This document shows positions 5,901-11,900 of a stretch of 64,000 nucleotides of DNA, piece by piece. The stretch lies in NCBI RefSeq assembly GCF_003018255.1, contig NZ_CP027440.1; one strand, 5' to 3'. This DNA comes from Escherichia coli. Its GTDB lineage: Bacteria; Pseudomonadota; Gammaproteobacteria; Enterobacterales; Enterobacteriaceae. A program made the position numbers. The stretch's first letter is position 1. Every line of letters begins with the position of its first letter.

Positions 5901-8900
5901 AATGCTTGAAACATAATTAATTATTTAAATTTTTCTATCAGCATCGCAAACTTCGCAATAAAACATCACTCAACTGAATATTTACCTTTCCCTGCCCTGG
6001 GCCTTTATCCGGTGAAACATTTGACATTGATTGACACCGATCATTAAAATCCGCGCGATTAATATTATTGGCTACAAACCGAAATTGTTTGACACTTAAT
6101 AACATATTCGCACAACCGATTAATACAAAAATTCTCTAACAAATTTATTTGTCGGATATGCTCCACTCTAATCATTCATAAAAAAAATGATTGTGCCGTA
6201 ATTATCAACTGTATCGGGATTATGAAAAGGAATTCATCCTATGAACCTAAAGAAAACACTGTTAAGCGTGTTAATAATAGTGCCTCTCTGCTTATTGGCA
6301 GGGTGTGACTATATTGAAAAAGCGAGTAAGGTCGACGACCTCGTTACACAGCAAGAGTTGCAAAAAAGCAAAATTGAGGCGCTTGAGAAACAACAGGAAC
6401 TCGATAAGCGAAAGATAGAACATTTTGAAAAACAACAAACTACTATCATAAATAGTACCAAGACGCTCGCTGGCGTGGTGAAGGCGGTTAAAGACAAACA
6501 GGACGAATTTGTCTTTACAGAATTTAACCCGGCACAAACCCAATACTTCATTTTAAATAACGGCTCTGTTGGTTTGGCAGGCCGGGTGCTGGCTATTGAT
6601 GCAGTTGAAAATGGCAGCGTTATTCGTATTTCGCTGGTTAATTTATTAAGCGTTCCCGTATCAAATATTGGCTTTCATGCGACATGGGGCAATGAAAGGC
6701 CCACCGATGCCAAAGCTCTGGCAAAGTGGCAACAATTACTTTTCAACACCACACTGAATTCCACTCTGCAATTAATGCCTGGTCAATGGCAAGACATTAA
6801 TCTGACATTAAAAGGCGTTTCGCCTAATAACCTGAAGTATCTGAAGTTGTCCATCAATATGGCCAATCTCCAGTTCGACACTGTTCAATCTGCTGAAACT
6901 CGGCAGCGAAAAAACAAAAAATAAATGCAGCTTCTGCGCTTATATCAAGGAATAGAGAGCATCAATAATGAACAAAATTTTTAAAGTTATCTGGAATCCA
7001 GCGACGGGCAGTTACAGCGTTGCCAGCGAAACGGCGAAGAGCCGTGGTAAAAAAAGCGGGCGCAGTAAGCTGTTAATTTCTGTACTAGTTGCGAGTGGGT
7101 TGTTGTCGTCGTTTGGAGCGTTAGCTAATAACTACGACGGGCAGCCAACTGATTATGGCGATGGCTCAGCAGGTGACGGCTGGGTTGCTATCGGTAAAGG
7201 GGCAAAAGCAAATACCTTTATGAACACTAGTGGCGCGAGTACAGCTTTAGGATATGACGCGATAGCCGAAGGTGAGTACAGTTCTGCCATCGGGTCAAAA
7301 ACCCTTGCAACTGGTGGAGCATCCATGGCGTTCGGGGTTAGTGCAAGAGCAATGGGTGACAGAAGTGTCGCGCTGGGTGCATCGTCAGTAGCAAATGGCG
7401 ATCGTTCGATGGCTTTTGGTCGTTACGCAAAGACGAATGGTTATACATCTCTTGCTATTGGGGACTCCTCCCTTGCCGATGGTGAAAAAACTATTGCGTT
7501 AGGAAATACGGCTAAAGCTTACGAAATTATGAGCATCGCCCTCGGTGATCATGCCAATGCGTCAAAAGAATATTCAATGGCGCTGGGTGCAAGTAGTGCC
7601 GCATCTGCGGCTAACGCGATTGCAGTAGGCCGCAACAGTGCTGCAGCTGGCGTAGACAGCCTCGCATTCGGTAGACTATCCGCCGCCAACGCCGCAAACG
7701 CGATTGCTATGGGTGCAGAGAGCAAAGCTGCTGAAAATGCGACGGCAGTTGGTACTAACGCGGAGGCAAATGGACTTAATAGTATCGCGTTGGGCTCCGG
7801 CAGTATTGCAGATGTCGACAACACTATTGCTCTGGGCAATCAAAGTCAGGCAGTAGCGGCTGGCGCAATTGCCATCGGTCAAGGGAATAAAGCTGACGGC
7901 GCAAATGCTATCGCGCTGGGTAATGGTAGTATTACAGGTGGTGTAAATGCTATTGCTCTTGGACAAGGCAGTTATGCCGGTTTAGAAAATGGCACTGCAA
8001 TTGGTGCTCAAGCCAGTGCTCAGGGGAAAAATTCAGTTGCTCTGGGTGCTGGTTCTGTAGCGACTGACGCGGATACTGTTTCTGTGGGTAACACAACAGC
8101 TCAGCGACAAATTGTCAATATGGCAGCAGGTGATATCAGCACTACCAGTACTGATGCCATCAATGGATCACAGCTTTATGCTATCAGTAAGTCAGTAGCG
8201 GACAATCTTGGTGGGGGGGCTACCGTCAATGCGCAAGGCGTCGTTACTTCCCCAAATTACAGGCTGAAAAGTGGTATTTTCGGCACTGTTGGCGACGCCT
8301 TAACGGGCCTGGACAATAATACGTTACAATGGGACTCCCTTAAAAAGGCATATAGTGCGGCACATGGTACAGATACTACCAGTACCATCACCAACGTTAA
8401 AGACGGCGCTATTTCTGATACCAGTAAGGATGCGGTTAACGGTTCTCAGCTGAAAACCACCAACGATAACGTAGCGACCAATACTGCCAATATCACCACC
8501 AACACTAACAGTATCAATACCCTGACGGATTCCGTTGGCGACCTTAAAGACGATGCCCTGCTGTGGAATGGCACCGCGTTCAGCGCCGCGCACGGCACCG
8601 AAGCCACCAGCAAAATCACCAACGTCAAAGACGGTGACCTGACGGCTGGCAGCACCGACGCGGTTAACGGCTCTCAGCTCAAAACCACTAACGATGCCGT
8701 GGCAGCCAACACCACCAATATCGCCACGAACACCACCAACATCACCAACCTGACTGACGCTGTTGACAGTCTCGGTGATGACTCTCTGCTGTGGAATGAT
8801 GCAGCGAAAGCATTCAGTGCCGCTCACGGTACCGATGCCACCAGCAAAATCACTAACGTCAAAGACGGTGACCTGACGGCTGGCAGCACCGACGCGGTTA

Positions 8901-11900
8901 ACGGCTCTCAGCTCAAAACCACTAACGATGCCGTGGCAGCCAACACCACCAATATCGCCACGAACACCACCAACATCACCAATCTGACTGACGCTGTTGA
9001 CAGTCTCGGTGATGACTCTCTGCTGTGGAATGATGCAGCGAAAGCATTCAGCGCCGCGCACGGTACTGATGCCACCAGCAAAATCACTAACGTCAAAGAC
9101 GGTGACCTGACGGCTGGCAGCACTGACGCGGTTAACGGCTCTCAGCTCAAAACCACTAACGATGCCGTGGCAGCCAACACCACCAATATCGCCACGAACA
9201 CCACCAACATCACCAACCTGACTGACGCTGTTGACAGTCTCGGTGATGACTCTCTGCTGTGGAATGATGCAGCGAAAGCATTCAGCGCCGCGCACGGTAC
9301 TGATGCCACCAGCAAAATCACTAACGTCAAAGACGGTAACCTGACGGCTGGCAGCACTGACGCGGTTAACGGCTCTCAGCTCAAAACCACTAACGATGCC
9401 GTGGCAGCCAACACCACCAATATCGCCACGAACACCACCAACATCACCAACCTGACTGACGCTGTTGACAGTCTCGGTGACGATTCCCTGCTGTGGAACG
9501 CTACGGCGGGTGCATTCAGTGCCAAACACGGCACCAACGGTACTGACAGCAAAATCACCAACTTACTGGCAGGCACTGTATCCTCTGATAGCACTGACGC
9601 CATTAATGGCTCACAACTTTATGGTTTAGCTGATTCATTTACGTCATACCTTGGCGGTGGTGCTGATATCAGCGATGCGGGTGTATTAACCGGGCCAACC
9701 TACACTATTGGTGGTACTGACTACAATAACGTCGGTGATGCTCTGGCAGCCATTAACACGTCATTTAGCACATCACTCGGTGACGCCCTACTCTGGGATG
9801 CGACCGCCAAGGGCGGTGACGGTGCGTTTAGCGCCGGTCGCGGAAAAGATAACACGGCCAGCATCATTACTAATGTTGCAGACGGTGCAATTTCCTCTAC
9901 CAGCAGCGACGCTATTAACGGCTCACAGCTCTATGACACCAGTAAGTACATTGCCGATACTCTGGGTGGTGACGCAGAAGTCAATGCTGACGGCACAATC
10001 ACCGCACCGACTTATGCTATCGCTGGCGGCAGTTACAGCAACGTCGGTGACGCGCTGGAAGCAATCGATACCACGCTCGATGACGCTCTGTTGTGGGATG
10101 CCACAGCCAATGATGGTAATGGTGCATTTAGCGCCGCTCACGGAAAAGATAAAACAGCCAGTGTAATCACTAACGTCGCTAACGGTGCAATCTCTGCCAC
10201 CAGCAGCGATGCCATTAACGGTTCACAACTGTATACCACCAACAAGTACATTGCCGATGCCCTGGGTGGTGACGCAGAAGTTAACGCTGATGGTTCTATC
10301 ACTGCGCCGACTTACACCATTGCAAATGCCGAGTACAACAACGTCGGTGACGCCCTGGATGCGCTCGACGATAACGCTCTGCTGTGGGATGCAACGGCCA
10401 ATGACGGCGCAGGTGCCTACAACGCCAGCCATGACGGCAAGGCCAGCATCATCACAAATGTTGCTGATGGTAACATTGGCGAAGGCAGTACCGACGCCAT
10501 CAACGGTTCTCAGCTGTTTAACACCAATATGATGATCCAGCAGAACAGCGAAATCATCAATCAGCTTGCCGGTAACACCAGCGAAACCTACATCGAAGAT
10601 AACGGTGCGGGTATTAACTATGTACGTACCAACGACAACGGCTTAGCGTTCAACGATGCCAGCGCTTCAGGTATTGGCGCTACGGCTGTGGGTTATAACT
10701 CTGTTGCCGAAGGCGATAGCAGCGTAGCCATCGGTCAGGGCAGCTACAGCGACGTTGATACCGGTATTGCCCTGGGTAGCAGCTCCGTTTCCAGCCGTGT
10801 AATAGTTAAAGGTTCTCGTGACACCAGCGTGTCGGAAGAAGGTGTTGTGATTGGTTATGACACCACGGATGGCGAACTACTTGGTGCGCTGTCTATTGGT
10901 GATGACGGTAAATATCGTCAAATCATCAACGTAGCCGATGGTTCCGAAGCCCATGACGCCGTTACGGTTCGCCAGTTGCAAAATGCCATTGGTGCAGTCG
11001 CTACCACGCCGACCAAATACTTCCACGCCAACTCAACGGCTGAAGACTCACTGGCTGTCGGGGAAGACTCGCTGGCGATGGGCGCGAAAACTATCGTCAA
11101 TGGTAATGCGGGTATTGGTATCGGCCTGAATACTCTGGTTCTGGCAGATGCCATCAACGGTATTGCTATCGGTTCTAACGCACGCGCCAACCATGCAAAC
11201 AGTATTGCAATGGGTAATGGTTCTCAGACCACTCGCGGCGCTCAGACTGGCTACACCGCCTACAACATGGATGCACCGCAGAACTCTGTGGGTGAATTCT
11301 CCGTAGGTAGCGAAGACGGTCAACGTCAGATCACCAACGTCGCAGCGGGGTCGGCGGATACCGATGCGGTTAACGTGGGTCAGTTGAAAGTAACGGACGC
11401 GCAGGTTTCCCAGAATACCCAGAGCATTACTAACCTGAATACTCAGGTAACGAATCTGGATACCCGCGTCACCAATATCGAAAACGGTATTGGCGATATC
11501 GTAAGCACCGGTAGCACCAAGTACTTCAAGACCAACACCGATGGCGTAGATGCTAACGCGCAGGGTAAAGACAGTGTTGCGATTGGCTCTGGCTCTATTG
11601 CTGCCGCTGATAACAGCGTTGCGCTGGGTACTGGCTCTGTGGCAAACGAAGAAAATACGATCTCCGTAGGTTCTTCCACTAACCAACGCCGTATCACCAA
11701 CGTTGCCGCTGGTAAAAATGCTACTGACGCGGTTAACGTTGCGCAGTTGAAGTCTTCCGAAGCAGGCGGCGTGCGGTATGACACCAAAGCTGACGGTTCT
11801 GTTGATTACAGCAACATCACTCTCGGCGGTGGTAATGGCGGAACGACTCGCATCAGCAACGTTTCCGCTGGCGTTAACAACAACGACGCGGTGAACTACG

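Follow-up and report, generated by a model that had tools for sequence, protein, structure and literature searches.

The stretch analysed here (the window) is 64,000 nucleotides (nt) of Escherichia coli DNA from contig NZ_CP027440.1. It contains a gene for a trimeric autotransporter adhesin (TAA) of the UpaG/EhaG/SadA type, and within this gene lies an array of four near-identical, in-frame tandem repeats of 234 nt. Array length differed between strains, from 0 to 6 units in complete genomes and up to 7 in draft assemblies, and the variant arrays were in-register mosaics of the units found in the window. The features of the locus, all on the + strand, were as follows.

6241–6924 (+), gene for a SadB/YajI-family (DUF3251) lipoprotein, upstream of the adhesin gene (open reading frame (ORF) call; RefSeq annotation of orthologous loci)
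6968–12220 (+), TAA gene, 1750 amino acids (aa) (ORF call; positional orthologue of upaG/ehaG/sadA)
8351–8578 (+), unit of 76 aa left of the array, diverged in sequence but alike in architecture (direct-repeat match, 61% nt identity; score 92.7 with a hidden Markov model (HMM) of the unit, aa 462–537)
8579–8812 (+), unit 1 of the array; 100% identical to unit 1 of strains CUVET20-416 and EM10-18-28
8813–9046 (+), unit 2; about 100% identical to unit 2 of EM10-18-28 and to units 2 and 3 of CUVET20-416, with one difference, at unit position 171
9047–9280 (+), unit 3; 100% identical to unit 2 of strain GPEC856
9281–9514 (+), unit 4; about 100% identical to the last unit of two-copy strains and of strain KK05-19, with one difference, at unit position 58
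8708–8747, 8942–8981, 9176–9215 and 9410–9449 (+), a 21-nt (one-heptad) sub-repeat in each unit (Tandem Repeats Finder: period 21, 1.9 copies, 89%)
9515–10666 (+), four related modules of 83–100 aa forming a second, more diverged array (HMM envelopes at aa 850–949, 954–1049, 1054–1146 and 1151–1233)

The region around the array was 100% identical to the chromosome of E. coli JNE112863 (NZ_AP045072.1), and the 1750-aa product matched at 100% a RefSeq “YadA-like family protein” of that strain, encoded between yibL/sadB-like and lldP. The gene order at the locus, from the mannitol operon to lldP (mtlR-yibT-yibL-sadB-like-TAA-lldP), was the same in the strains with RefSeq-named upaG and ehaG, as judged from the annotated regions compared. 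Pfam domains ESPR (PF13018), YadA_head, YadA_stalk and YadA_anchor (PF03895) were found on a database protein (P0020) identical to ours over all 1750 aa, and the PF03895 anchor was found also on the two-unit and three-unit forms of the window’s allele. Nine YadA_stalk (PF05662) matches and one YadA_head (PF05658) match fell within aa 401–1311, and a sequence search matched the passenger to solved TAA fragments of SadA, AtaA, Hia, BpaA and UspA1. Over aligned residues the protein was 85% identical to a RefSeq-named UpaG and 80% to an EhaG; the C-terminal 520 aa were closer (96% and 93%, respectively) than the N-terminal head region (70–75%). RefSeq itself names the protein “YadA-like family protein”, neither UpaG nor EhaG, and an NCBIfam search found no UpaG/EhaG model, giving only below-cutoff matches to the Ata, Vomp, EmaA, BimA and YadA models.

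Locus position and Pfam domains together identify the gene, on sequence grounds, as an allele of the known UpaG/EhaG/SadA group of TAAs. Like other members of the family, the protein would form a homotrimer on the cell surface. UpaG and EhaG are reported to bind extracellular matrix and to mediate autoaggregation and biofilm formation (PMC7247748), and a SadB-type lipoprotein is the partner of this adhesin family (PMC7247746). A preliminary description of the window had recognized a trimeric autotransporter gene here, and this is borne out by the ESPR, head, stalk and anchor domains on the identical protein, with one YadA_stalk match for each repeat unit.

Tandem Repeats Finder reported the array at 8579–9498 (period 234, 3.9 copies, 97% matches, no indels, score 1742). 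When the sequence was compared with itself shifted by 234 nt, identity set in abruptly at 8575 and persisted to 9270, which delimits a near-identical tract of 930 nt (8575–9504, 3.97 copies). The period equals 78 codons, and the units are read in the frame of the ORF at 6968–12220, in agreement with the four near-identical in-frame units described earlier. The preliminary description had placed the tract at 8558–9487; its length of 930 nt was right, but the coordinates lay 17–21 nt too far upstream, and in a register starting at 8558 the first unit was only 89–91% identical to the others. In the register starting at 8579, units 1–3 were 97.4–97.9% identical to each other and unit 4 was 93–95% identical to them, the lower value arising because its last ~34 nt diverge at the junction with the next module type. 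Nineteen sites varied among the four units; 12 were synonymous third positions, and most of the others lay within the final 14 nt of unit 4. On the opposite strand, an open frame of 401 aa (8324–9529, −) spanned the array and was most likely a by-product of stop-free repeats rather than a gene.

All 60 of the best-matching complete E. coli genomes listed carried the gene as one colinear piece of 5252–5255 nt (exactly 5253 nt in 57 of them). Because the same count was present in all of these closest genomes, the four copies in the window are reproducible and not a misassembly. The earlier remark that such repeats make the gene easy to misassemble is plausible as a general point.

Each unit gave one Pfam YadA_stalk match. 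Unit plus junction aligned over 66–72 residues to the SadA fragments 2YNZ, 3ZMF and 2YO2 (E values 7e-14 to 3e-13), as well as to AtaA 3WPO/3WPA. The alignment took in the last part of a coiled coil, a DALL connector, a neck terminating in DAVNGSQL and the first part of the coiled coil that follows. The remainder of the unit showed a heptad pattern, and two of its core “d” positions were occupied by Asn; we take this to be the ion-binding “N at d” motif known from this adhesin family. By homology, then, the 78-aa unit is one stalk module, consisting of a DALL (helix-to-sheet) connector, a neck (sheet-to-helix) and a coiled coil of five predicted heptads.

Two NTTNIxx heptads in each unit were encoded by the 21-nt sub-repeat. 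Two proteins of the window’s allele from draft contigs (P0064 and P0065) lacked exactly one NTTNIAT heptad, in unit 3 or in unit 4, and the 71-aa units of UpaG were without the same heptad. Stalk length may therefore change also in steps of a single heptad.

The preliminary description had noted diverged copies on both sides of the array. On the left this held: one 76-aa unit of the same architecture was present, and it was found in most alleles examined. The right-hand modules proved to be of a different type, DALL-neck-FGG; they had only the DALL-neck half in common with the 78-aa unit, an FGG-type insert replacing the long coiled coil. Tandem Repeats Finder detected a period of 300 nt in them (9776–10359, 78%), and they aligned to SadA 2YO2 and AtaA 3WPA, including the GG...PxY...NVGDAL stretch. 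This second array was also polymorphic: CUVET20-416 had one module fewer (gene 291 nt shorter), yet it was near-isogenic with EM10-18-28.

To compare unit numbers, units were counted with an HMM built from the four units of the window; a fixed protein identity threshold of 80–85% under-counted diverged or shortened units (for 1899-aa proteins, five instead of the true six). Counts in complete genomes used the array with 1-kilobase (kb) flanks as query and took only single colinear matches of full query length at ≥99.4% identity, partial matches being left out. For the window’s allele, one unit was found in two complete genomes, two units in six, three units in 21 and four units in at least 60. 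The best 60 matches listed, all with four units, came from several countries and from human, poultry, pig and river-water sources. A related allele (97.8% identical to that of strain D10) was present in 17 complete genomes, including the RIVM series, and all 17 had one unit. Loci were also extracted from 15 chromosome-level assemblies, with the following counts.

0 units: NRZ14408
1 unit: D10, RIVM_C019217
2 units: STLEFF_47, HCM-28C-2
3 units: EM10-18-28
4 units: the window, CUVET20-416, ETEC1748, 405, KK05-19
5 units: Nord1, the UpaG type
6 units: GPEC856

The 120 best protein clusters gave, by the same HMM, two units in 2 clusters, three in 37, four in 44, five in 3, six in 31 and seven in 3, and protein lengths in these clusters rose in 78-aa steps (1594, 1672, 1750 and 1828 aa; 1831, 1909 and 1987 aa). 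The gene outside the array was 99.8–100% identical in DNA sequence to that of the window in D10, STLEFF_47, HCM-28C-2, EM10-18-28 and CUVET20-416. The 1672-aa proteins had at first appeared to be a different allele, with 79% identity at 93% coverage in a protein search; alignment of the flanks assigned them to the same allele with one unit fewer.

The comparison of repeat counts across strains that the preliminary description had proposed was thus made, and the number was not the same everywhere: the window’s allele occurred with one, two, three or four units, and other alleles with 0–6 units (seven in drafts). The expected variability of stalk length between strains was therefore found. The three-unit form was present on more draft contigs than the four-unit form, whereas complete genomes showed the opposite; the marker pattern of the common three-unit protein was not that of a simple collapse of the window’s array. 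A few 1750-aa database proteins had the unit markers (E/D at residue 8, D/N at residue 20) displaced, in the patterns ED.ED.DD.DD, ED.DD.ED.DD and ED.DD.DN.DN; either gene conversion between units or assembly noise could account for them.

At the 19 sites where the units differ, variant arrays were in-register mosaics of the units of the window. The single unit of D10 matched unit 1 as far as position 171 and unit 4 from position 201 onwards; compared with a two-unit relative, the exchange, as read from these sites, must have occurred within the 122-nt identical tract at positions 79–200. The array of EM10-18-28 read u1, u2, u2/u4, and that of CUVET20-416 read u1, u2, u2, u2/u4, i.e. the EM10-18-28 array with one more u2. 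In NRZ14408, which had no unit, the start of a unit was fused to the first FGG-type module. Such in-register mosaics are the products expected of misaligned homologous pairing between units.

Three pairs of near-isogenic strains (2–3 differences across the gene and flanks, 9.5–11.6 kb) differed in unit number: STLEFF_47 (two units) and D10 (one), CUVET20-416 (four) and EM10-18-28 (three), and RIVM_C019217 (one) and Nord1 (five; 909 nt longer), the last pair having two differences in about 9.7 kb. Thus, unit number changes faster than local point substitutions accumulate. The units of CFT073-type UpaG were 97–98% identical to each other and 82–87% identical (DNA) to the units of other alleles, and this higher identity within than between alleles is a signature of concerted evolution.

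Very probably, then, the array is a reiterated stalk module whose unit number is turned over by in-register misaligned pairing, giving rise to alleles with 0–7 units. The array is an in-frame tandem reiteration of one structural module of the stalk, and with three chains building each module, every extra unit would add one rigid segment to the trimeric fibre. Since neighbouring units are 97–100% identical over tracts of more than 100 nt, misaligned pairing in register could gain or lose whole units and leave the reading frame intact. Either unequal exchange between sister chromosomes or replication slippage might bring about such pairing, and the pathway might be RecA-dependent or RecA-independent. 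Repeated events would homogenise the units by concerted evolution and produce the range of alleles.

What the variation would do to the adhesin can be estimated from relatives. SadA, of 1461 aa, is about 108 nm long (PMC7247746), and the length of BadA fibres scales with gene length (PMC8859334). From these measured fibre lengths, we estimate about 5–7 nm for each 78-aa unit and about 20–26 nm for the four units of the window, and by analogy unit number would change the reach of the adhesin, with possible effects on adhesion, aggregation and immune recognition.

One alternative accepts the polymorphism as real and holds it to be functionally neutral, stalk length in this range being without effect on adhesion or fitness. 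The reading frame stays intact at every count from 0 to 7, and natural isolates with all of these counts exist, as neutrality would allow; non-adaptive evolution has also been argued for the trimeric autotransporters of Brucellaceae (PMC7688925). On the other hand, a review links the repeat number of Cha, another member of the family, to adhesion, biofilm formation and how far the head is exposed at the surface (PMC9704523), and the function of SadA is masked by long surface structures such as lipopolysaccharide (PMC7247748); by analogy, both would favour an effect of stalk length. We regard neutrality as a serious possibility, though somewhat less probable than not. The opposite view, that the UpaG-family array is a trimeric “periscope” in which selection tunes unit number (0–7, with heptad steps) so that the head clears or hides beneath O-antigen or capsule, is more speculative and we think it rather unlikely; if it were true, unit number would track the type of surface polysaccharide across E. 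coli lineages.

Several observations weigh against turnover within the array as the source of the variation. Strains with the same allele had flanks (2.5 kb on each side) only 97.6–98.2% identical to those of the window, whereas the gene outside the array was 99.8–100% identical (window 4468–14720 compared with loci L004–L006, L008 and L016). This contrast suggests that the adhesin allele has been exchanged between chromosomal backgrounds, and recombination of entire alleles could have brought part of the variation from one strain to another. Four units were present in each of the 60 closest complete genomes listed, which came from several hosts and countries, so change is rare in that lineage. 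Moreover, the seven-unit forms and the D-type two-unit form of L002/L003 are known from draft assemblies only.

Taken to its limit, the first of these points would mean that there is no appreciable change in place, and that old diversity is reshuffled by homologous recombination of whole upaG alleles; such movement of alleles between backgrounds, and the fixed unit count in the window’s lineage, would fit. Imported alleles, however, normally bring linked substitutions, but the three near-isogenic pairs differ in units with three or fewer differences over the gene and flanks. The variants of one allele were also nested in-register chimeras, hence events within the array after the origin of that allele. 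Reshuffling as the whole explanation is therefore improbable.

The opposite extreme, a fast contingency locus with high-frequency switching resembling phase variation and mixed fibre lengths in one culture, appears slightly less probable again. Long near-identical tandem repeats are known substrates of slippage, and one unit against five between strains with two differences in about 9.7 kb would be in keeping with rapid change. Against it, hypervariability is contradicted by the 60 closest complete genomes listed, all of which carry four units; the array is stable in the widely dispersed lineage of the window and not a fast switch. The 17 genomes of the related allele also agreed on one unit, though assemblies report the consensus only.

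Finally, that copy-number differences are assembly artefacts, by collapse or expansion of units, is most improbable: an array of 936 nt with units 97–100% identical does exceed the length of short reads, two-unit proteins (P0071 and P0073) and the seven-unit proteins do come from draft contigs, and the displaced markers in some 1750-aa proteins could be assembly noise, but every count from 0 to 6 was present in assemblies at complete-genome level, the variants recurred in independent genomes (one unit, n = 19; two units, n = 6; three units, n = 21; four units, n ≥ 60), and the units concerned were specific chimeras, not simple collapses of the window’s array.

In-register turnover of a stalk module has parallels in and beyond the family. 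UpaG (CFT073 type) and EhaG have the same locus and the same module types as the gene of the window. The RefSeq-named UpaG contained five units of the same kind (three of 78 aa and two of 71 aa) and EhaG two more diverged ones; they differ from the window’s protein in a head region only 70–75% identical and, for UpaG, in unit DNA 82–87% identical to the units of the window. Extensive variation of the middle region of upaG has been reported (PMC7247748, PMC8281228). A literature search on UpaG with repeat or copy number, whose coverage did not extend to the primary UpaG/EhaG papers, gave no explicit account of variation from 0 to 7 units.

SadA of Salmonella enterica (2YNZ, 2YO2, 3ZMF and 2YNY) is the positional orthologue of this adhesin (PMC7247748); the unit aligned residue by residue to its coiled coil, DALL and neck, and a SadB-type gene lies upstream in both. 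A Salmonella protein with ESPR, YadA_head, YadA_stalk and YadA_anchor domains, listed among variable-repeat proteins (Dataset S1, PMC8201768), has a 90-aa repeat in three to four copies, unlike the 78-aa unit and the range of 0–7 here.

BadA of Bartonella henselae is alike in that its neck/stalk domains have been multiplied, deleted and recombined between strains and in that long reads are needed to establish its length; electron microscopy showed that longer genes give longer fibres (PMC8859334). It differs in its size (2,920–4,407 aa), its about 30 heterogeneous neck/stalk domains and a neighbouring pseudogene “toolbox” (PMC8859334), whereas the window had a single short array of one near-identical module and no paralogous donor nearby.

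The Periscope Proteins (single-chain stalk proteins, SasG, Rib and Sgo_0707 among them) are also similar, having highly identical DNA repeats, a rod-like stalk, and a repeat number that varies between close strains in long-read assemblies; the proposed role of the repeats is to set the projection of a distal binding domain (PMC8201768, PMC9704523). The genetic features of that class were found in the array, with units 97–100% identical, 0–6 units in complete genomes, and near-isogenic pairs that differ. The class, however, is restricted by definition to monomers whose domains fold independently. Trimeric autotransporters, in which three chains build each module, are explicitly excluded from it, and they are also said to “lack tandem repeat domains” (PMC9704523). 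Under this structural definition we have not filed the window’s protein, whose modules would be built from three chains, as a Periscope Protein; at least one TAA nevertheless has a near-identical tandem array, contrary to the statement of the review (PMC9704523).

Variation of repeat number in TAA stalks was already known from BadA, from the Salmonella YadA_stalk repeat protein and, as a review summarises, from Cha. The present case is a well-documented further example of this evolutionary behaviour, and current understanding of adhesins is unchanged by it. Both UpaG and EhaG serve as typing markers, and they have been put forward as vaccine antigens (PMC7247748, PMC8281228). Gain or loss of 78-aa modules changes the size of the protein and possibly the exposure of its head, and unit variation can make gene calls from short reads, and typing by presence or absence, unreliable. 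The alleles also provide a natural series, 0–7 units on otherwise near-identical alleles, for testing stalk length against adhesion.

Some minor observations were made on the neighbouring gene and elsewhere in the window. The upstream SadB/YajI-family lipoprotein gene gave no NCBIfam match, and in ETEC1748 its orthologue was annotated as a pseudogene with an internal stop, the adhesin gene being intact. The mtlA-mtlD intergenic region contained a 135-nt tandem repeat (2727–3013, 2.1 copies, 96%), and this spacer was 364 nt in the window strain versus 228 nt in STLEFF_47 and HCM-28C-2. At 54908–56010, three matches to the Rfam C4 antisense RNA (72–78 bits), ~461 nt apart, overlapped a 460-nt tandem repeat (2.1 copies, 93%). 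At 40098–40136 (−) there was a JUMPstart element (55 bits), and at 59112–59184 a 21-nt repeat of 3.5 copies.

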